Below, piece after piece: positions 2,874 through 61,445 of a DNA stretch of 64,000 nucleotides (its first letter is position 1; every line of letters starts with the position of its first letter). A model generated the notes under the pieces. The model searched no databases. It saw nothing but the letters and a program-made list of their open reading frames with translations, and was not told the origin of the DNA. A program made the position numbers and the translations under genes. The stretch covers positions 1-64,000 of the IMG/VR virus record IMGVR_UViG_3300028888_000074. One strand, 5' to 3'. The stretch is from a virus. Lineage: Duplodnaviria > Caudoviricetes.

Positions 2874-3989
2874 ATGAAAATCACATTAAAAGAAATTACA
2901 ATCGGAGAAGTTGCAAAAGGTTTTGTTGATAACAACGAACAAGGTGTTGTCGGTTATGACGGATTGTTGAATATCCGACCCGCATACCAAAGGGAATTTG
3001 TCTATAAGGACAAACAACGCAATGCGGTCATTGACACGATTATGAAAGGTTTTCCGCTTAATGTTATGTATTGGGCGAAAAATGCAAATGGCACTTATGA
3101 ACTCCTTGATGGTCAGCAAAGAACAATATCTTTCTGCCAATTTGTCAGCGGTTGGTTCTCCGTGACTGACACAAATGGCAATCCGAAGTATTTTCAAAAC
3201 ATGACTGAAAAGGAGCAATCCGATTTCCTTTCATACAAATTGTTCATCTATGTTTGTGATGGGGCAGACAACGAGCGTCTTGATTGGTTTCGCACTATCA
3301 ATATAGCAGGCGAAAAACTGACCGACCAAGAACTTTTGAACGCTAATTATGTCGGTGCTTGGTTGAGCAGCGCAAAACAAAGGTTTTCAAAGACAAATTG
3401 TGTGGCATACCATATTGGCAACAAATATGTCAATGGCAGTCCGATTCGGCAGGAATACCTTGAAACCGCTATTAAATGGGTTTCCGATGGCAAGGTTGCT
3501 GAATACATGGCAGCGCATCAATTTGATGAAAATTCCGATGAATTATACAATCACTACCGCAATGTGATTGATTGGATTGAAAAAACATTCACCACATACC
3601 GAAAGGAAATGAAAGGTTTGGATTGGGGTAAATTGTATAAAACCTATCACAAAAACGAATATGATAGTGAAAAACTTGAAGAACAAGTGAAAGAGTTGAT
3701 GATGAACGATGAGGTCACCGACAAGAAAGGCATCTATGAATATGTGTTGAGTGGAAAGGATGAGTATATCGCACGCAAATTGTCAAAACGGACTTTCTCC
3801 AATGCTGACAAACGAACTGCCTATGAAAGACAAAATGGCATTTGCCCTAAATGCGGTCAGCATCACGAATTTTCCGAAATGGATGGAGACCACATTGTCG
3901 CTTGGTGGAGAGGAGGCAAAACAACACTTGACAACCTTCAAATGCTCTGCAAAAAGTGCAATGGTGTGAAAAGCGGAAAGACTGAATAA
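2874..3989 (+). CDS. DUF262 (ParB/GmrS-like) domain plus C-terminal HNH endonuclease
   Basis: IRPAYQREFVY, LLDGQQRT, FRTINIAG; C-terminal CPKC..DHIVAW..GG.T...NLQMLCKKCN. Confidence 0.85.
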   Translation: MKITLKEITIGEVAKGFVDNNEQGVVGYDGLLNIRPAYQREFVYKDKQRNAVIDTIMKGFPLNVMYWAKNANGTYELLDGQQRTISFCQFVSGWFSVTDTNGNPKYFQNMTEKEQSDFLSYKLFIYVCDGADNERLDWFRTINIAGEKLTDQELLNANYVGAWLSSAKQRFSKTNCVAYHIGNKYVNGSPIRQEYLETAIKWVSDGKVAEYMAAHQFDENSDELYNHYRNVIDWIEKTFTTYRKEMKGLDWGKLYKTYHKNEYDSEKLEEQVKELMMNDEVTDKKGIYEYVLSGKDEYIARKLSKRTFSNADKRTAYERQNGICPKCGQHHEFSEMDGDHIVAWWRGGKTTLDNLQMLCKKCNGVKSGKTE

Positions 3990-4061
3990 CTTTGGCATAC
4001 TTTTTGCATATATGGGAATGTCAGTATATTTATAGAAACAACAATTAAAATTATAATTACT

Positions 4062-4958
4062 ATGGCAAATAACAATTCAAACCTGCACAATGCAAAAACC
4101 GCAAAAAACGATGAGTTTTACACCCAACTTTCCGACATTGAGAAAGAACTGAACAACTACAAGGACTTTTTCAATGGAAAAATCGTTTATTGCAATTGTG
4201 ATGACCCAAGAGAATCCAATTTTTTCAAATTCTTCTCATTGAACTTTGAGAGACTTGGCTTGAAAAAACTCATCACTACGGGGTATAAGAAAGACGGACA
4301 CGGGGTTGTTTTTGTCTATGAGGGTGACAAGAACGGAAATAGAATGGTTGATGATGATGAGGTTGTTGTGACCGAATTGAAAGGCAATGGTAGTTATGAT
4401 TCCGAAGAGTGCATTGAATTTCTAAAAGAATGCGATGTTGTTGTGACCAACCCACCATTTAGTTTGTTCCGTGATTATGTGAAACAACTGATGGACTACA
4501 ATAAGAAATTTTTAATCATTGGAAGCCAAAATGCTATCACATACAAGGAGATTTTCCCTTACATCAAAAATAACCAACTTTGGTTAGGAATGAATTGGGT
4601 GAAAGAGTTTATCCAACCTAACAAGGAAATAAAAAAATTTGGAAACATTTGTTGGTTTACCAATGTGGAAAACAAAAAGAGAAACAAACCTTTGGATTTG
4701 TATAGAAAATACAATCCAACTGACTATCCGAAATACGACAACTATGATGCTATTGAGGTCAGCAAAGTAACTGATATTCCCGAAGATTACAACAGAGTGA
4801 TGGGTGTACCTATTACTTTCCTTGACAAATATTGTCCTACACAATTTCAAATTGTAGGAATTGACCGCTATGTTGAAGATAATCCAAATTATGGACATCG
4901 TTTCAACATCAATGGAAAAGAATGTTACGCACGAATTTTAATTAGGAAACTCGCTTAA
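4062..4958 (+). CDS. Adenine-specific DNA methyltransferase, EcoRI-methylase family
   Basis: AKTAKNDEFYT, VYCNCDDP, catalytic VTNPPFS, MGVPITFLDKY. Confidence 0.88.
   Translation: MANNNSNLHNAKTAKNDEFYTQLSDIEKELNNYKDFFNGKIVYCNCDDPRESNFFKFFSLNFERLGLKKLITTGYKKDGHGVVFVYEGDKNGNRMVDDDEVVVTELKGNGSYDSEECIEFLKECDVVVTNPPFSLFRDYVKQLMDYNKKFLIIGSQNAITYKEIFPYIKNNQLWLGMNWVKEFIQPNKEIKKFGNICWFTNVENKKRNKPLDLYRKYNPTDYPKYDNYDAIEVSKVTDIPEDYNRVMGVPITFLDKYCPTQFQIVGIDRYVEDNPNYGHRFNINGKECYARILIRKLA
4838..4858 (+). repeat. Left 21-bp inverted repeat inside the methylase gene
   Basis: TACACAATTTCAAATTGTAGG is the exact reverse complement of 5042-5062. Confidence 0.9.
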
Positions 4959-5062
4959 TCAATAATCTTTTATAAACACCCTTTCCATTGATTTCAAATT
5001 GACCAAGTGATGCTCCATTTCCATCAATATCGTGTTCGTGACCTACAATTTGAAATTGTGTA
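4942..5062 (-). other. Silent inverted alternative C-terminus of the methylase (TQFQIVG-HEHDIDGNGASLGQFEINGKGVYKRLLIKRVS*)
   Basis: Homologous to the expressed tail TQFQIVG..FNINGKECYARILIRKLA* and in frame after the repeat. Confidence 0.8.
5042..5062 (-). repeat. Right 21-bp inverted repeat
   Basis: CCTACAATTTGAAATTGTGTA. Confidence 0.9.
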
Positions 5063-5115
5063 CAATTAACGAAAAAAATATGACATTTATTGCATAATCC
5101 TAATTTTAATTGTAA

Positions 5116-5171
5116 TGACAATGTGTCACCTTTAACTGACAAGGTGGCACATTTTTTATGACAATATGTCA
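5116..5171. promoter_or_regulatory. TGACA-N3-TGTCA cluster 2
   Basis: Boxes at 5116, 5137 and 5159 (21/22-bp spacing) before the sigma54 motif at 5181. Confidence 0.65.
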
Positions 5172-5233
5172 GTTGAGGTTTTGGCATGGTATTTGCATAA
5201 TGGTAAATGTATAACAATTAAAAATTTAGTGCT

Positions 5234-5572: not shown

Positions 5573-5625
5573 CAAATTGGCACACTATTTGCATATAGGG
5601 AAATGTAACAATTAAAATTAGAATT

Positions 5626-18536: not shown

Positions 18537-19023
18537 CGCATACATATCCAATATGTACAACAACGGGGAAGCTAACAGCAAAGTTATATGTTAATGGGGT
18601 AACAAACTGCTTCCCGACACACACACGCTCTTTGAAATAAAAAAAAGCAATCGCACAGCAAACTTTCTTATTAATGCAAATAAAAAGCTCACTATGGTCA
18701 TAATTTCCAAGGCACACGCCGTAGCCTTTGACCGAAAGCGGCAGGGTAAAGAAAACGGGTCATAGCGTACTGCCCGAAAAGGCGCACCACCTCGATTGCT
18801 GTCAATAACACATGGGGTGTGCCAGTTTATCATGGCTAGGCTTTCTTATTACTTATTTGTGCGGCACCAGCCCAGCCATTCGCGGTCTTGTTTTTTTTCA
18901 TATCGGCACACCCCTTTTTTAAAAACTGGCACACTTTTTGCTAGCATATGGTACGCAACTGCGTACATAAAAAGAAGAAAAATTTTAATTTTAATTAACA
19001 AACAAACTTTAAAACTTAAAACA

Positions 19024-19890
19024 ATGGATTTAAAACAGAAAACTTATTTCATTCAGAGAACAGATTTAATCAAGTCCTACCTCAAGGACATCAACAAATA
19101 TCCCGTCCTGACAAGACAACAGGAGGAGGACCTGTTCAAGGCATACTACGAGCTTGAAGGAAACAAGGAGGCCCAGAACGCCATCCGTAACCAAATCATC
19201 ATGGCAAACCAGCGCTTCGTGTTCGCAATCGCAAAGCGCTACGCTACAGATGACACCCTTGTCGACCTTGTCAACGAAGGGAACCTCGGAATGATTGCCG
19301 CATTCGACGACTACAACCCTGAGCTCGGTTACCGCTTCACAACCATGGCAGGCAACTATGTCCGCCGCGCCATTAACAAGTATCTCAACAACGACAATCT
19401 GACAGTGCGCCCGACCAACAACATCATGTTCGGCCCCAAGGTCAAGTGCATAGAGCGCGACTATCAGGCAAAGTACGGCACCAAGCCCACCATCGCCGAA
19501 ATCAAGGAAATCCTTAAGGAAAAGTACGGCCTGGAAGTGAAGAACGAATCCGACATCTATGGCGCTTTCGTAACTTCAATCGACGATAACCAGTCTGTTG
19601 AGGACGATGACGACATGCAGGACTACAGCGAATACGCCACAGTAAGCGCAAGCCATAACGAATACCTGGACACCATGGAAAAGGAAGACCTGTCATACCA
19701 AATGCAACAGGCCCTCAACTCTCTCTCAGAGAGAGAGCAAACCATTGTCAAAATGTCAAACGGAATCGGATACACCAAGGAATACAAGGACAAGGAAATC
19801 GCACAGGAACTCGGACTATCAACCGAACGTGTCCGCCAAATAAAACATTCGGCAACAAAGAAAATGGCTGAGGTATACTGCGTGGCTTAA
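19024..19890 (+). CDS. Phage RNA polymerase sigma70-family factor (RpoD/RpoS-like regions 1.2-4)
   Basis: YLKDINKYPVLT..EE, NQRFVFAIAKRY, DLVNEGNLGMI.A...Y.P..G.RFTT.A, LSEREQ, EIAQELGLSTERVRQI; start placed at ATG 19024. Confidence 0.9.
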   Translation: MDLKQKTYFIQRTDLIKSYLKDINKYPVLTRQQEEDLFKAYYELEGNKEAQNAIRNQIIMANQRFVFAIAKRYATDDTLVDLVNEGNLGMIAAFDDYNPELGYRFTTMAGNYVRRAINKYLNNDNLTVRPTNNIMFGPKVKCIERDYQAKYGTKPTIAEIKEILKEKYGLEVKNESDIYGAFVTSIDDNQSVEDDDDMQDYSEYATVSASHNEYLDTMEKEDLSYQMQQALNSLSEREQTIVKMSNGIGYTKEYKDKEIAQELGLSTERVRQIKHSATKKMAEVYCVA

Positions 19891-30441: not shown

Positions 30442-31740
30442 TTGACATACTCCCACGAATAAATTCGTGGGATTCTTGACTTAAACATGCACGCTGATGG
30501 CGTTGACGCCAGCAGCATTTGCACTCGCCAATTCGTCGATGCCCCGACGAAGTATATTTCTCGCTGCATTCAAGTCCCTGTCGTTTGTCCTTCCGCAATG
30601 CGGGCAGACCCACTCCCTGTCCTTCAGCGACAGGTTCTCATTGACAAACCCGCACTCACAGGTTTTGCTTGACGGATAGAACCTGTCAATCTTGTGCAGG
30701 TTGCATCCGTATTTCGACGCAACCATTCCGAGGATTTCCACGAACCTTCCGTGCGCCAGGTCGTTCATTTTCCTTCCCCACCTCCTCGACATTCCAGTCA
30801 GGACAAGGTCCTCGATGAATATGTTGTCATATGAGCGGCATATCGCATGGGCAAGTTTCCACTGCCAGTCGGTGCGTGAATTCACAACCTTTTCATGACA
30901 TCTGTCAAGGTCCATGCGTTTCCGTCTTCTGTTGTTCGAGCCACGCTTTGCGTTGCTCAGCTTTCTGGACGCCTTTCTTAATGATGCTAGGTTGTGTTTA
31001 AGGAACTGCGGGTTCTCTACCACCTGTCCGTCGGAGAGCGTGAGATAGGTTTTCAGACCGAAGTCAATGCCGACGGATGCACCATTGTGTGTCTTTCCGT
31101 ATCTTTTGGCTTCGGCGTCGGTGACCACACTGATGTAGTAGTCGCCAAGCGGTGACCGCTTGACCGACAACCTCTTCACTTCTCCCTTGAGCGGACGGCT
31201 CAGCGAGAACTTGAATGTTGTTTTCAGTTTGTTTATTGTGAATTTGTTGCCTTTCAGTTTGAATCCTCCCTGTTTGAAAACCACGGACGACATGTCCGAG
31301 AACTTCTTGAATTTCGGGGGTCTCTTGGACTTGTGGGTGAAGAACCTCTGGTATGCATAGTCGAGGCGTTCAATCACCTCCTGCACACTTTGAGAGTGAA
31401 GGTTCTGCATCTTGTACCTCTTGGCGAAGTGTGTCTTCATCCTGTTTCCGCCTACATACTTGCCGTACATTTCATAGTACTTCTTCTGGAGGGCAAGGCA
31501 ATGGTTCCATACAAAGCAAGCCTCACGCATCAGGGTTTCGATGCGTTTGTTTCTTTTGGATGCGTATAGCTTGTACTTGTATGTCAGCATTTTATTGTTA
31601 TGTTTATAACAATAAATAGTCCGTTATGTGTAAAAAGCACCACGAGCGTTGTTTTTTTTTGTTTTTTAATTTTAAAAATGTATAATTAAAAATAACTGGA
31701 TTCATCCAACGACTGAAGTCGTTGGTTTTCTCCAGTGTAA
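30442..31740 (-). mobile_element. IS200/IS605-family TnpB-only element A
   Basis: Near-identical to 60146-61445; subterminal hairpins; right end TCAA; TTATGAT 5' of the left end; no tnpA. Confidence 0.88.
30481..31590 (-). CDS. tnpB: RNA-guided endonuclease TnpB
   Basis: GIDFG, IEDL, DRDLNAA RuvC triad; CECG and CPHC Zn finger. Confidence 0.92.
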   Translation of the reverse strand: MLTYKYKLYASKRNKRIETLMREACFVWNHCLALQKKYYEMYGKYVGGNRMKTHFAKRYKMQNLHSQSVQEVIERLDYAYQRFFTHKSKRPPKFKKFSDMSSVVFKQGGFKLKGNKFTINKLKTTFKFSLSRPLKGEVKRLSVKRSPLGDYYISVVTDAEAKRYGKTHNGASVGIDFGLKTYLTLSDGQVVENPQFLKHNLASLRKASRKLSNAKRGSNNRRRKRMDLDRCHEKVVNSRTDWQWKLAHAICRSYDNIFIEDLVLTGMSRRWGRKMNDLAHGRFVEILGMVASKYGCNLHKIDRFYPSSKTCECGFVNENLSLKDREWVCPHCGRTNDRDLNAARNILRRGIDELASANAAGVNAISVHV

Positions 31741-36609: not shown

Positions 36610-38003
36610 TTCTAGCAAGAAGTCTCCCTCCTTTAGGCGGGGGTTGAATTGCTCTTTGTTATTTTATGGTTATTATACACTTTTTTTTGGAAAAACCAAA
36701 TACCTTTTGTAATACACCAAACTATTTATACATACATGTTAAAAGCGTTCAAATACAGACTGTTGCCAGATACCGAACAGGCCGAGTACATCAAACGTAC
36801 CATCGGCTCGGCCAGGTTTGTCTACAACTGGCTGTTGAATGACTACAAGGAACAGCTTGACATTTATAACCAGAATAACAAGCAAGGAAACAAACCAATA
36901 ATCAAGGAAGTCACTGAAGCCAAAAAGGACAATTATTTCCTGTCTGGCGTGGATTCATTGGCCTTGGCCAATGCCAAGCTCAACCTGAACACGGCATTGA
37001 GGAACTTCTTCGACTCACGGAATGGAAAAAGAAAGGGCAGGAAAATCGGGTTCCCGAAACCACACAAGAAAACGAAATGCAGATGGAGTTACACAACGAA
37101 CAACCAGGGAGGAAACATAAGGGTTGAAAACGGGCACATCTGTCTACCGAAAATAAAGTGGGTCAAACTAATACAGCACAGGGAACTGGAAGGAGTGATA
37201 CGAAGCGCAACCGTTTCCATGGAACGGAACGGCGATTTCTATGTCTCGGTTCTCTGCAACGTGGAACAAGCAAAGAAACAAAGACAAAAACCAGATACAA
37301 TCAAGGTCGTCGGCCTTGATATGTCATACACCGAATTCGTTGTCGATTCCGACACGTTGTCTGACGATACGAAACCCAAGTACGTCAGGCAATACAGGAG
37401 TAATGAGAAGAAACGGTCAAGGCTTAACCGAGCCATGTCAAGAAAGGCAATCGGTTCCAGGAACAGGGACAAAGCCAGAGTCAGGCTTGCAAAGCTTGAC
37501 AGGCACATTGCAAACTGCCGAACTGATTTCGCCCACAAGATGAGCAGGCACTATGCTGAGAACTATGACGTTATTGTAATAGAAGACATAGACATGCAGT
37601 CGCAAGCCAGGAAAAAGATGAGGGGACACGGAAAGTCAGCCAACGACTTGGGCTGGGGACAGTTCAAGTCTTACCTGAAATACAAATGCGAGATATATGG
37701 GTCGCTTTTTGTTGTTGCGGACAAATGGTTTGCAAGTTCGAAGACATGTAACCTTTGCGGAACGGTCAACCACGGATTGACGTTGTCCGACAGGGAGTGG
37801 ACATGTCCAGAATGCGGAGCAACACTACATCGTGACTACAATGCGGCATGTAACCTCAGGGACTGGTATTTTGAAAGATATAATACCGTAGGGACTACGG
37901 GAATTCACGCTTGTGGAGATTCAGCCGATACAGCAGGGGGAACCCTGCTGCAAGCTGGGTCGTTGAAACAAGAAGCACCTTCCTTCAGGGAGGGGTAGTT
38001 CAC
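36610..38003 (+). mobile_element. IS200/IS605-family TnpB-only element C (left end approximate)
   Basis: Left hairpin at 36614-36653; right hairpin followed by TTCAC. Confidence 0.75.
36736..37998 (+). CDS. tnpB: RNA-guided endonuclease TnpB
   Basis: MLKAFKYRL start; GLD, IEDI, HRDYNAA; Zn finger CNLC/CPEC. Confidence 0.9.
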   Translation: MLKAFKYRLLPDTEQAEYIKRTIGSARFVYNWLLNDYKEQLDIYNQNNKQGNKPIIKEVTEAKKDNYFLSGVDSLALANAKLNLNTALRNFFDSRNGKRKGRKIGFPKPHKKTKCRWSYTTNNQGGNIRVENGHICLPKIKWVKLIQHRELEGVIRSATVSMERNGDFYVSVLCNVEQAKKQRQKPDTIKVVGLDMSYTEFVVDSDTLSDDTKPKYVRQYRSNEKKRSRLNRAMSRKAIGSRNRDKARVRLAKLDRHIANCRTDFAHKMSRHYAENYDVIVIEDIDMQSQARKKMRGHGKSANDLGWGQFKSYLKYKCEIYGSLFVVADKWFASSKTCNLCGTVNHGLTLSDREWTCPECGATLHRDYNAACNLRDWYFERYNTVGTTGIHACGDSADTAGGTLLQAGSLKQEAPSFREG

Positions 38004-39309: not shown

Positions 39310-40694
39310 TAACGTGCAAGAAAGCCCACTGCTTTAGCTGTGGGATGAATTGCACTCTATTATAATATACATTTTTTTTGAAAAAACCAAAACTTTTTCA
39401 AAAAACACACTATTTATAAGTACATGATACAGTACAGGACATATACAATCAGGCTGTTTCCGAACATGGAGCAGGAACAGGAACTCAAAAACCTGTCCCT
39501 TGCAAGGAACATTTTGTATAACATGCTTGTCGGAATCGAACAGAAAACCTATGAGGAGACAAGGAAAATAAAAACCGAGTTCGACCTAGACAGGGATATC
39601 ACTGTATTGCGAAAAGAACACCCGTTCCTGACCAAACTCAACTCCAAGGCGAGCCAGAGAGTCGCCAAGGAGGTGTATTCAGCATACAAATCGTTCTTCA
39701 GCCTTGTCAAAAAGGACAAGACGGCGAAACCGCCTAAGCAAATGAAAGACGTGAATAGGTTCCATACAGTGGCATACAACCAGACTGGCTGGAAGTTTAT
39801 CAGCGAGAACACATTAAAGTTGAACGGTTTAATCGTGAACTACAAGGGAATCCCTGGCATGGATTACAAGTCCATGGCGGTTAAGGAAGTCAAACTGAAA
39901 CGTGTGAATGGAAAGTATCTGCTGGACTTGAGTGTGGCAAACAGTGTGGAGGAAAAACAAACAATAACCAATGAAAACAAGGTGCTTGCGATAGACCTCG
40001 GCCTAAAGAACCTTTGCAACGGCGTGGACAACCTCGGCTCTGTTGTAGTGTTACCAAACAAAGCCAGGAAAATAAACAGGTACTTCAGGAAACAGATATC
40101 GGCTGTACAGTCGAAGATGGACAGGTGCATCAAGGGCAGCAGCCGACACTGCAAGCTCAAAAAAACGAAAAGGAAACTCTATAACAGGAGGAATGCACAG
40201 ATAAAACAGACTCTGCATATCCAGAGTAAAAAACTGGTGGATATGAACTACAAGACGATTGTAGTTGGTGACTTGAGTGTGAAGAAGCTGATGGATAAGG
40301 GGAGCAACAAGCTGACCAAGACTTCCAGAAGCTTCGGCGAATCATCGATAGCCACATTCATGGAATACCTTGCATACAAGTGCCAGAACAGCAACACCGA
40401 GCTGGTGACAATCAACGAGATGTGGACAACACAGCAGAACTGTCTGACTGGCAAGCTGTTCAAGGAGAAGGTCGGACTGTCCGACAGGACTGTCATGCTT
40501 TCGGATTCCATAGAGATAGACCGTGATTTGAACGCCGCAATCAACATAATGAAGCGGTACGAGCAGAATCACCTTGCGCTGCTGACAGCGCCGCTGGATG
40601 TTTCCAGTGTGGTCAACAGGCACAACCTGTTGACAGATACGTGTTCTTGAAACAGGTCAAGAACCCCACGGTTTTAACCGTGTGAGTATGTCAG
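39310..40694 (+). mobile_element. IS200/IS605-family TnpB-only element D, inserted in the 3' end of pncA
   Basis: End hairpins; removing 39310-40694 restores an in-frame pncA tail. Confidence 0.8.
39424..40650 (+). CDS. tnpB: TnpB-family protein (rearranged RuvC-II type)
   Basis: AIDLG, VVGDL, INEMWTT, DRDLNAA. Confidence 0.85.
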   Translation: MIQYRTYTIRLFPNMEQEQELKNLSLARNILYNMLVGIEQKTYEETRKIKTEFDLDRDITVLRKEHPFLTKLNSKASQRVAKEVYSAYKSFFSLVKKDKTAKPPKQMKDVNRFHTVAYNQTGWKFISENTLKLNGLIVNYKGIPGMDYKSMAVKEVKLKRVNGKYLLDLSVANSVEEKQTITNENKVLAIDLGLKNLCNGVDNLGSVVVLPNKARKINRYFRKQISAVQSKMDRCIKGSSRHCKLKKTKRKLYNRRNAQIKQTLHIQSKKLVDMNYKTIVVGDLSVKKLMDKGSNKLTKTSRSFGESSIATFMEYLAYKCQNSNTELVTINEMWTTQQNCLTGKLFKEKVGLSDRTVMLSDSIEIDRDLNAAINIMKRYEQNHLALLTAPLDVSSVVNRHNLLTDTCS

Positions 40695-54722: not shown

Positions 54723-56228
54723 GTCAACTACCCACGACTAAAGTCGTGGGCTTGTGGAGCAAAGGACAGAACCCTGTAACGGATTAAGCCTTTGACATGG
54801 CGCGTTGACAAGCGCTCTTACATCATCTTGGTACAACCAATTTGATTTACGTTCTTTGAAATACTTTTTTAGAATATTGACACTACCATTTATATCAGCG
54901 TTCAGCATACTGCCGTCGGAAGACATGTATAAGCCACGCTCTACCCTTATTCCTGAAAAGGTGTGTTTCTCTTCGGAAATTCCGTATGTCGGAATCGGGT
55001 CGTCGTCAAGCGAGCTCGCCTTTGATGTGTAGCTCTCCTCCTGGGGACAGTATGCTATGCCGTGCAGTTCACACTTGTATTTCAGTTTCTGGCGGAACTT
55101 ATGCAGCGGTATCATCACGGTGTTCTGGTTATTGACCTTACCAATGCTGATTTCCTGTTTCTGTTCCTTGTTGTAACCGACAACAAGTGTTGTCACACCG
55201 AACTCAAGGCATTTGTCCACGATAAGTTTGACCGACTTTCCGAAATAGTCGTCAATCCTGTGCGACCTTCCGTTCATCAGGCGAAGCATCTTTGGTGTGT
55301 TGGCCGACTTTACATGTTCGTTCTTGGCATATTCGCCCTTTAGCATTGCAACTTTCTTATTGTAATAGTGATTTATGCTTTTTAGTCTTCGCCCGTCAAT
55401 AAGGAACTGACGGGTTTCACCATTAGAAAAGATTGTGCAAGCGGCAAGGTTGTCAACACCAAGGTCTATGGACATGTAACCGTCACCTTCAGCCTGTCTG
55501 AGTTGGTTTCCTGCCTCGTAAATAAATTCTATTGAGAACTGCCGACCGTTGTACTGCGGGATTATACGGATTTCCTTGAATTCAGTTACATTTCTGAGAT
55601 TCTTCGGAATGGTGAGCAGGATTCTCCTGTCGTCAATCCCGTACTTTTCGCGGAATTCCTTGGTGAGTCCGATAGCGACAGTCCCGTTCTTTTGGATACG
55701 ACAGCTTCTCCCCTGAATGGTACAGATTGCCAGACCTTCGGAATCCTTATAACGGGGAAGTCTCACCTGTTCGGAATACCTGCCTGACTTTTTCAGTGCA
55801 AGCAGTTTGAAGAACGACTGCATGTCCCTGTCGACAAGTCTGAGAATCTGTTGCGCACAGTCGGAGAGAAGTATGTGGTAGTTCTCATTGTCCTTGCATT
55901 CGTTATAGTTTGCATAGTAGGACAGGTAGGATTGTGTGTTGAAATAGTGCTGGCGCACGGAATACAGGCCGACATTGTACATCCTTGCGGAATGGTAACA
56001 GAGGTTTCTGAGGATGGACAAGTCCACCTCGTGTTTCTGTTTGGTCTGAAGTATTTTCGTTGTCAGGTACATTTCCGTGTGTTGTATATATAAATAGTAG
56101 GTTATTTCAAAAAAGTTTATAATATATTATATTTATAAAAAAAAAAATAAGAATAATAATAAAAAAAAAGAAAAGGCTAGCCTGCAATTCCTCCCACCAC
56201 TAAAGTAGTGGGTTTCCTTGCAGGAGTT
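54723..56228 (-). mobile_element. IS200/IS605-family TnpB-only element E
   Basis: Hairpins at both ends; ATGAT 5' of the left end; right end TGAC. Confidence 0.78.
54738..56072 (-). CDS. tnpB: TnpB-family protein (rearranged RuvC-II type)
   Basis: SIDLGVDN, VVGYN, QEESYTS, NADING. Confidence 0.88.
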   Translation of the reverse strand: MYLTTKILQTKQKHEVDLSILRNLCYHSARMYNVGLYSVRQHYFNTQSYLSYYANYNECKDNENYHILLSDCAQQILRLVDRDMQSFFKLLALKKSGRYSEQVRLPRYKDSEGLAICTIQGRSCRIQKNGTVAIGLTKEFREKYGIDDRRILLTIPKNLRNVTEFKEIRIIPQYNGRQFSIEFIYEAGNQLRQAEGDGYMSIDLGVDNLAACTIFSNGETRQFLIDGRRLKSINHYYNKKVAMLKGEYAKNEHVKSANTPKMLRLMNGRSHRIDDYFGKSVKLIVDKCLEFGVTTLVVGYNKEQKQEISIGKVNNQNTVMIPLHKFRQKLKYKCELHGIAYCPQEESYTSKASSLDDDPIPTYGISEEKHTFSGIRVERGLYMSSDGSMLNADINGSVNILKKYFKERKSNWLYQDDVRALVNAPCQRLNPLQGSVLCSTSPRL

Positions 56229-60145: not shown

Positions 60146-61445
60146 TTACACTGGAGAAAACCAACGACTTCAGTCGTTGGATGAATCCAGTTATTTAATT
60201 ATACATTTTTAAAATTAAAAAAGCAAAAAAAAAAACAATGCCCGTGGTGCTTTTTACACATAACGGACTATTTATTGTTATAAACATAACAATAAAATGC
60301 TGACATACAAGTACAAGCTATACGCATCCAAAAGAAACAAACGCATCGAAACCCTGATGCGTGAGGCTTGCTTTGTATGGAACCATTGCGTTGCCCTTCA
60401 GAAGAAGTACTATGAAATGTACGGCAAGTACATAGGCGGAAACAGGATGAAGACACACTTCGCAAAGAGGTACAAGATGCAGAACCTTCACTCTCAAAGC
60501 GTGCAGGAGGTGATTGAACGCCTCGACTGTGCATACCAGAGGTTCTTCGCCCACAAGTCCAAGAGACCTCCGAAATTCAAGAAGTTCTCGGATATGTCAT
60601 CCGTGGTTTTCAAACAGGGAGGGTTCAAACTGAAAGGCAACAAATTCACGATAAACAAACTGAAAACAACATTCAAGTTCTCTTTGAGCCGTCCGCTCAG
60701 GGGAGAGACAAAGAGGTTGTCGGTCAAGCGGTCACCGCTTGGAGACTACTACATCTGTGTGGTCACCGACGCCGAAGCCAAAAGATACGGAAAGACACAC
60801 AATGGTGCATCCGTTGGCATTGACTTCGGTCTGAAAACCTATCTCACACTATCAGACGGACAGGCGGTCGAGAACCCGCAGTTCCTTAAACACAACCTCG
60901 CATCATTGAGAAAGGCATCCAGAAAATTTAGCAACGCAAAGCGTGGCTCGAACAACAGAAGACGGAAACGCATGGACCTTGACAGATGCCATGAAAAGGT
61001 TGTGAATTCACGCACCGACTGGCAGTGGAAACTTGCCCATGCGATATGCCGCTCATATGACAACATATTCGTCGAGGACCTTGTCCTTACTGGTATGTCG
61101 AAGAGGTGGGGAAGGAAAATGAACGACCTGGCACACGGAAGGTTCGTGGAAATCCTCGGAATGGTTGCGTCGAAATACGGATGCAACCTGCACAAGATTG
61201 ACAGGTTCTATCCGTCAAGCAAAACTTGCGAGTGCGGGTTTGTCAATGAGAACCTGTCACTGAAGGACAGGGAGTGGGTCTGCCCGCATTGCGGAAGGAC
61301 AAACGACAGGGACTTGAATGCTGCAAGAAATATACTTCGTCGGGGCATCGACGAATTGGCGAGTGCAAATGCTGCTGGCGTCAACGCCATCAGCGTGCAT
61401 GTTTAAGTCAAGAATCCCACGAATTTATTCGTGGGAGTATGTCAA
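60146..61445 (+). mobile_element. IS200/IS605-family TnpB-only element B (sister of A)
   Basis: Same ends as A; interrupts the 3' end of the 61878 gene. Confidence 0.88.
60297..61406 (+). CDS. tnpB: RNA-guided endonuclease TnpB
   Basis: Near-identical to 30481..31590; RuvC triad intact. Confidence 0.92.
   Translation: MLTYKYKLYASKRNKRIETLMREACFVWNHCVALQKKYYEMYGKYIGGNRMKTHFAKRYKMQNLHSQSVQEVIERLDCAYQRFFAHKSKRPPKFKKFSDMSSVVFKQGGFKLKGNKFTINKLKTTFKFSLSRPLRGETKRLSVKRSPLGDYYICVVTDAEAKRYGKTHNGASVGIDFGLKTYLTLSDGQAVENPQFLKHNLASLRKASRKFSNAKRGSNNRRRKRMDLDRCHEKVVNSRTDWQWKLAHAICRSYDNIFVEDLVLTGMSKRWGRKMNDLAHGRFVEILGMVASKYGCNLHKIDRFYPSSKTCECGFVNENLSLKDREWVCPHCGRTNDRDLNAARNILRRGIDELASANAAGVNAISVHV

Follow-up and report, generated by a model that had tools for sequence, protein, structure and literature searches.

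A short invertible DNA segment that exchanges the tail of an EcoRI-family methyltransferase in a large phage

The question raised by the locus

Can a phage change the specificity of its own DNA methyltransferase by turning round a short piece of its genome? Phase variation of methylation specificity is a bacterial strategy, and to our knowledge the flip-switches described in phages act on tail fibres. The question arises from a gene for an EcoRI-family methyltransferase in the virus record IMGVR_UViG_3300028888_000074 (Duplodnaviria; Caudoviricetes), where a perfect inverted repeat encloses two alternative 3' ends of the gene. The whole stretch of DNA that was analysed, here called the window, comprises the first 64 kb (positions 1 to 64,000) of this 115,947-bp IMG/VR record. 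CheckV estimates the record to be 32 % complete, which implies a phage genome of several hundred kb; the carrier is a large phage of gut or rumen, a jumbo phage of lytic type. The switch is real, and selection acts on it. That it has two states, exchanges the tail of the methyltransferase and in doing so most likely alters the methylated motif is the reading we hold with good, though not full, confidence.

A methyltransferase gene with two convergent tails

The elements of the locus are listed below in window coordinates; L009, L010 and L011 are related loci that are described in the following sections.

4062..4958, plus strand: EcoRI-family DNA methyltransferase P0001, 298 aa in its present state, predicted to be of the N6-adenine type (Pfam and an AlphaFold2 (AF2) model)
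4062..4837, plus strand: constant methyltransferase body, residues 1-258, outside the switch and collinear in L009, L010 and L011
4838..4858, plus strand: left arm of the inverted repeat, encoding (P)TQFQIVG
4859..5041, no strand assigned: invertible 183-bp core holding both tails, found as its reverse complement in L009 (181/183 identical)
4859..4958, plus strand: expressed tail, type T1, IDRYVEDNPNYGHRFNINGKECYARILIRKLA followed by a stop; T1 is the commonest type (66/120 closest relatives)
4942..5041, minus strand: silent tail, type T6, HEHDIDGNGASLGQFEINGKGVYKRLLIKRVS followed by a stop, without a promoter or a start codon of its own
5042..5062, minus strand: right arm of the inverted repeat
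5120..5153, plus strand: terminator-like hairpin with a T-run that ends the methylase transcription unit, outside the invertible segment

The family assignment made in the preliminary description from the letters alone is borne out by an end-to-end match of P0001 to PF13651 (EcoRI_methylase; E 1.2e-111, score 373.8 bits where the curated cut-off is 26.4, covering positions 1-344 of the 345 in the profile), its sole Pfam family. PADLOC matches it to MTase_II (E 2e-103). Residues 130-133 read NPPF, with N130 invariant across 144 sequences. Sequence and AF2 model together place this catalytic (D/N)PP(Y/F) motif on a predicted Rossmann-type S-adenosylmethionine (SAM) methyltransferase fold.

The same description had pointed to a perfect 21-bp inverted repeat bracketing 183 bp, and this repeat stands up to scrutiny. 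The arm sequence, TACACAATTTCAAATTGTAGG, lies at 4838-4858 (plus strand) and its exact reverse complement at 5042-5062. These are the only two copies in the window at up to three mismatches, and 100 shuffles returned 0 matches. The pair is the longest perfect inverted repeat with arms at most 6 kb apart in the whole 115,947-bp record, where other perfect inverted repeats of at least 17 nt within 6 kb are almost absent. Read on the minus strand from 5062, the DNA encodes TQFQIVG and then HEHDIDGNGASLGQFEINGKGVYKRLLIKRVS up to a stop; repeat and reading frame are in the same register as in the expressed copy, so that the silent tail would indeed be fused in frame at TQFQIVG by inversion, as had been proposed. 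The locus consists, in other words, of inverted repeats, one of them intragenic, around a promoterless alternative end that comes into frame after inversion.

Two terms of the preliminary description need correction. The tails are not head-to-head but convergent, their 3' ends overlapping in the stop regions at 4942-4958. The label "mini-shufflon" is loose, since just one segment can invert, giving two states, and an Rci-type recombinase is lacking; the 116-kb record contains a single pair of tails. A 91-aa open reading frame (ORF) on the minus strand, 4942-5217, was considered as a gene in its own right and rejected, as relatives have stops immediately upstream of the silent tail.

The flipped state in nature

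The opposite orientation, which had been suggested as the sign of a working switch, was looked for in relatives and found. A near-identical JGI metagenome contig, L009 (sample 3300041891), agrees with the window in its upstream flank (99.5 % identical) and in the flank past the right arm (95 %), both in the same orientation, and its inner 183 nt align only as the reverse complement (181/183, or 98.9 %, as against 62 % in the forward direction). The methyltransferase encoded by L009, P0005, has a body about 94 % identical to that of P0001 and ends with the silent tail of the window, residue for residue (last 32 residues, 32/32); the silent tail of L009 is in turn the expressed tail of the window.

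Tail T6, silent in the window, is expressed not only in P0005 but also in L014 and P0079. L014, which is 72 % identical and located on a 383-kb contig, has the same T1/T6 pair in the flipped state. A Logan contig, L011, comes from a different run (SRR7633495); over 3,409 nt its identity to the window is 100 %, and it has the window's orientation. Since this identity comes from a separate run, the arrangement is not an assembly accident of one data set. Both orientations therefore occur in nature, one in the window and L011, the other in L009 and L014, in different samples or strains.

A conserved layout, co-evolving arms and intact silent tails

An architecture scan by script over 177 fetched loci located the switch layout at nine independent loci, namely the window, L009, L010, L014, L018, L021, L028, L001 and L032. 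The eight loci beyond the window are relatives at 54-94 % identity, with arms of 15-21 nt at the same codons. Apart from L009 they are:

L010: 94 % identical; T1 expressed, silent tail different from that of the window
L014/L015: 72 % identical, on the 383-kb contig; tail pair of the window, flipped
L018: 69 % identical; same architecture, with T1 and T2 paired as expressed and silent tails
L001: 63 % identical; same architecture
L021: 61 % identical, 344,580-bp contig; same architecture
L028: 54 % identical; same architecture
L032: second methylase in the record of L001; arm sequence the same as that of L001

The arms always lie on the codons for Q-F-E/Q/R-I, and their outer edge falls at one codon position in all genomes. 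Within a genome the arms agree at an identity of 0.99 over the first 15 nt, as against 0.77 for arms taken from different genomes; in L010 the central base is altered in both arms. The conserved property is thus the identity of one arm to the other and not a particular sequence. The arm sequence itself appears to be strain-specific; a search for the exact 21-mer in viral contigs gave 0 loci.

This bears on the dyad ACAATTT-C-AAATTGT that had been noted inside the arm. It is real in the window's arm, but as a conserved recombinase site it was rejected: L001 retains it in reduced form and L018 and L028 have all but lost it, and all three carry the same switch. Judging from the sequence, it is most likely a by-product of the AT-rich codons used for Q-F-E/Q-I-V.

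Decay of the silent tail, the outcome that would have pointed to an idle cassette, was seen in none of the relatives. Silent tails are intact in all nine loci and open to a stop at the usual place. Between silent tails, the ratio of non-synonymous to synonymous substitution rates (dN/dS) is 0.02 (L014/L021) or 0.11-0.12 (L018 and L028, each against L032), dS being near or beyond saturation in these comparisons. Such low ratios indicate that each tail is expressed often enough for selection to act on it.

The record that carries L001 and L032 (221,842 bp) has two methylases about 10 kb apart, each with its own invertible tail (L001:3779-4042 and L032:3426-3689), and the four arms are close to identical in sequence, CTAAACAATTTAGGATTGTA. 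If the two loci recombined with each other, four tails might in principle be exchanged, or the intervening stretch of about 10 kb inverted. The record G001, with four copies of one repeat over two methylase genes, comes closer to a shufflon than the window does.

How the segment might be flipped

We propose that recombination between the 21-bp inverted arms would flip the 183-bp core. Both arms fall on codons for a conserved beta-strand, TQFQIVG, and since they encode this strand in the same phase, each flip would yield an in-frame fusion of the constant body (residues 1-266) to one of two 32-residue tails, the unused tail being parked antisense without promoter or start codon. Each tail comprises a hypervariable loop (13-60 residues in the family) followed by a conserved NGK..Y.RILI strand. 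A phage population would in this way be equipped in advance with two patterns of protection from host restriction, and the DUF262-HNH nuclease encoded next to the methylase might likewise have two targeting states. That the flip takes place reversibly and at some rate within a population, and that an enzyme brings it about, we infer, as we do the change of motif.

What could be the enzyme? No recombinase gene had been noticed next to the cassette, and profile searches extend this result: the families of serine recombinases (PF00239), tyrosine recombinases (PF00589) and IS110/Piv-type proteins (PF02371) are all absent from the 116-kb record (G000), which is incomplete, so that a distant gene is possible. 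The three families are likewise absent from the cassette-bearing records G001 (60 % complete), G003 (344 kb, 93 % complete) and G004. A cognate site-specific recombinase, usually encoded nearby, is thus missing from these records.

Several candidates were examined and set aside. The sole recombinase match in G005, also cassette-bearing, is an IS607 TnpA beside a TnpB gene; this serine recombinase is a transposase and has no relative in the other records. It belongs to an IS607-type element (L178:1306-3320) with a MerR-HTH serine TnpA and TnpB, inserted beside a gene resembling GDP-mannose dehydratase. G002, a relative without the repeat, has two PF00239 matches, a full-length and a partial one. 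Five "transposase" genes of the window, considered as invertases, turned out to encode TnpB (OrfB_IS605) instead:

30481-31590 (minus), 36649-37998 (plus), 39424-40650 (plus), 54738-56072 (minus) and 60297-61406 (plus): TnpB genes (OrfB_IS605 plus Cas12f1-like TNB), within 31 kb

The record contains no serine TnpA (PF00239) for these five genes; a Y1 (HUH) TnpA was not searched for.

Two routes then appear about equally likely, and neither is favoured beyond a tentative degree. A dedicated site-specific invertase might act on the arms in trans, supplied by the host or by the unsequenced two-thirds of the phage genome. The 32 % completeness of the record leaves room for such a gene, Bacteroidales genomes encode many invertases, and short arms of 15-21 nt with a sharp outer edge at one codon position in all genomes, together with the internal dyad of the window's arm, would suit a dedicated enzyme. 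However, apart from the IS607 TnpA of G005, none of the three recombinase families occurs in G000, G001, G003, G004 or G005; arm sequences vary freely between genomes, arm-to-arm identity alone being conserved; and the dyad is lost in L018 and L028.

Alternatively, and with the same reserve, no invertase may be involved. The flip could occur at low frequency by short-homology recombination or by template switching during replication, the arms being close together, through the phage's own replication and recombination machinery, and host restriction might then select and amplify the useful state. This route is consistent with the conservation of arm identity rather than arm sequence, with the 93 %-complete relative that has the switch and no canonical recombinase, and with the near absence of other perfect inverted repeats of at least 17 nt within 6 kb. 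A RecA/UvsX-like protein is encoded by G001 and G003. However, the matches to it are weak (E 1e-8 and 6e-7), the 116-kb record has none, and for RecA-type exchange 15-21 nt of homology is very little.

A repertoire of tails on a constant body

The 120 closest proteins (69-94 % identity) carry 25 unrelated tail types, 13-60 residues long, between QF.IVG and NGK..Y.RILI. When tail types are mapped on a tree built from the constant body, 44 changes are counted, compared with a minimum of 24 and a mean of 53 for shuffled labels. Tails are almost scrambled on the body tree and have been swapped often. The wider family, at 45-60 % identity, has the same succession of conserved strand, variable loop and conserved strand (QFEIVG ... 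NGK..Y.RILI).

Close relatives show three layouts: one tail only (L180, L181, L016), an expressed tail with an inverted silent one, or two to three full-length paralogues in tandem. The last is exemplified by L179 (1501-3897), where three EcoRI-family methylase paralogues follow each other. Outside residues ~176-200 and the tail, the first two are about 90 % identical; their tails are of types T1 and T2, which in L018 are paired as expressed and silent. The retention of extra whole genes that differ mainly in the tail loop argues that the loops are functionally distinct. The variable stretch at ~176-200 may be a second recognition element.

In L020 (3467-4716), a second, tandem methylase copy is in pieces and is followed by two directly oriented mini-ORFs of 75 and 58 aa. 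Both begin MKTYKIKIKNP..GVPITF.DKYNP.QFEII and differ in their tails, which are T3-like and T2; they look like alternative C-terminal pieces made as separate polypeptides.

Does the tail read DNA?

The AF2 model of P0001 was built from 144 sequences and reaches a mean pLDDT of 91.9 (90-96 in the tail); an earlier model from 28 close sequences was discarded (tail pLDDT 42-57). In the retained model, residues ~18-203 form the Rossmann methyltransferase core. Its best structural matches are rRNA methyltransferases (Z 10-11.5), and among DNA methyltransferases it matches M.TaqI (Z 10.2, rmsd 3.4, 155 aligned), MmeI (Z 9.0), CamA (Z 8.5) and M.BseCI (Z 8.4). The tail lies in the confidently modelled C-terminal part that follows the catalytic core, which ends near residue 203. 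Gamma-class methyltransferases, M.TaqI among them, have their target-recognition domain after the catalytic core. Because of its C-terminal position and its variability, the tail loop is predicted to read DNA; a change of the methylated motif is then the most likely consequence of exchanging a tail in this non-catalytic part, and a change of specificity on flipping is probable.

The gene upstream of the methylase has to be brought in at this point, together with the promoter-like motif between the two:

2874..3989, plus strand: DUF262 (GmrSD_N)-HNH nuclease, the partner gene (Pfam PF03235 and PF01844)
3992..4021, plus strand: TGGCAY-N5-TTGCA motif of sigma-54-like promoter type, ahead of the methylase gene (repeat family D1)

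The partner nuclease matches PADLOC REase_II over its full length (E 1e-131), and a DUF262-HNH relative adjoins the methylase in 142/178 fetched viral and metagenome loci. The methylase is hence not a stand-alone enzyme: EcoRI-family methylase and DUF262-HNH nuclease make up a two-gene module of very wide occurrence. Good conservation of the nuclease from end to end, next to a hypervariable methylase tail, does not fit an ordinary Type II pair.

Several observations count against a switch of specificity. The nuclease is identical in both states (100 % over the 228 residues present on L009), and if it were an ordinary sequence-specific restriction enzyme, an altered methylase specificity would be self-harming. 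It must therefore tolerate both methylase states, which leaves three options: it is targeted by the methylase, it is indifferent to methylation, or the motif does not change. The C-terminal 95 residues of P0001 have no structural match, alignments by VIA-align rarely passing residue ~270; Foldseek with the AF2 model matched the Rossmann core only, and a PDB sequence search gave no solved structure for an EcoRI-family methylase. A search with short protein fragments did not find a flipped-state fragment of the window's own strain; its matches were confined to more distant relatives and to P0380, the antisense ORF of the window itself. The missing recombinase families discussed above weigh in the same direction.

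Some of these points are shared by an unlikely, though not negligible, explanation, according to which the flip is real and serves another purpose: the tail would be a surface seen by a host sensor or inhibitor, or the docking site of the DUF262-HNH nuclease, and the motif would stay the same. The extreme diversity of the tails and their scrambling on the tree resemble an arms race, the nuclease to which the methylase is so closely linked does not differ between the two states, and the Foldseek, VIA-align and PDB searches yielded no evidence of DNA contact for the loop. However, the loop occupies the C-terminal non-catalytic part where gamma-class M.TaqI has its target-recognition domain, the same variable loop runs through the wider family at 45-60 % identity, and tandem full-length paralogues that differ mainly in the loop are easier to explain by distinct motifs. 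A switch of methylation specificity accordingly remains the reading that we prefer. That the silent tail is no more than the inert remains of a methylase gene, duplicated or convergent, its repeat kept by a shared coding motif, is very improbable: the repeat does coincide with conserved codons and most family members at 46-60 % identity lack a second tail, but the near-identical L009 shows an exact inversion, silent tails are under strong purifying selection with none broken, and arms are identical within genomes while synonymous sites differ between them.

The wider neighbourhood

The D1 repeat recurs at 5181-5210 and 5577-5606, and its motif is found in L001 at 2957-2980 and 4093-4110. TGGCAY-N5-TTGCA, which resembles a sigma-54 -24/-12 element, repeatedly stands before genes and is then followed by a shared leader, AACAATTAAAATTA; it is a putative promoter. 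At the end of this sigma-54-like promoter array, the window encodes a phage sigma-70-family factor with regions 1.2, 2 and 4 (18796-19890, plus strand).

A relative without the switch, L016 (1-9813), has an island upstream of its methylase that comprises GmrSD (DUF262 plus DUF1524), a D12-class methylase, T5orf172, a second EcoRI-family methylase (345 aa) and DUF262-HNH.

Relation to known inversion systems

In full-text literature searches, no account of a phage EcoRI-family methylase with an invertible tail came up. The closest parallel is the programmed gene-altering inversions of bacterial Type IIG/IIL-like defence methyltransferases, i.e., BREX PglX, DISARM DrmMI and Cj0031-like enzymes (Milman et al. 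2023, PMC9881135). There, too, intragenic inverted repeats swap the 3' part of the gene with a promoterless inverted partial copy, and a change of specificity is presumed (PMC9881135). However, these proteins exceed 1000 aa, are chromosomal and belong to other families; their segments measure kilobases and a recombinase gene is usually nearby (PMC9881135). The present case concerns a 298-aa EcoRI-family enzyme of a lytic-type jumbo phage, whose cassette measures about 100 nt and whose arms measure 15-21 nt; no recombinase was found for it.

The hsdS invertons of Type I restriction-modification (R-M) systems in Streptococcus pneumoniae and Bacteroides fragilis (PMC7672463, PMC7641763) are similar in mode, inversion swapping target-recognition modules so that the methylation pattern shifts in a clonal population. 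Unlike the phage enzyme, HsdS forms a specificity subunit of its own, in which two recognition domains are combined; it serves host defence, and its gene is flipped by a tyrosine recombinase encoded next to it. P0001 is not an HsdS protein, its Pfam match being to PF13651 only.

Among phages, the G segment of Mu and the C segment of P1 are inverted by the serine invertases Gin and Cin at 26-bp sites with the help of an enhancer, which changes tail-fibre genes and adsorption. As here, the flip of a phage segment exchanges the C-terminus of a protein, in Mu and P1 giving two types for different hosts; the target here is instead a DNA-modification enzyme, and PF00239, the family expected of a Gin/Cin/Hin-type enzyme, is missing from the 116-kb record. 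The R64 shufflon has several segments, seven 19-bp sfx sites and the tyrosine recombinase Rci. There, too, inversion at short repeats decides which of the alternative C-terminal segments a protein receives, whereas the window has one segment, one tail pair, two repeat copies and no PF00589 gene. The phage cassette thus differs from known inversion switches in enzyme family, large-phage carrier, small scale and the lack of a visible recombinase.

Implications

A broader picture, which we advance tentatively and judge clearly less probable than the switch of specificity itself, is that jumbo phages of gut or rumen Bacteroidales-type hosts run a phase-variable modification of their own, by means of a cassette of about 100 nt that is flipped without a phage invertase and draws on at least 25 shared loops. 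As part of the same tentative picture, the cassette would re-target the methyltransferase, and perhaps the paired nuclease, and the pool of loops would amount to a natural, portable specificity code.

The absence of an invertase from a nearly complete relative raises the question of how such short repeats recombine. The system is compact, with 21-bp arms and 32-residue modules, and at least 25 natural loops on a near-constant scaffold allow a direct test of how loop sequence relates to DNA motif; the repertoire may also serve the engineering of methyltransferase specificity. If the proposed switch is true, phages would hedge their bets at the restriction barrier too, with two ready-made methylation patterns in each population.

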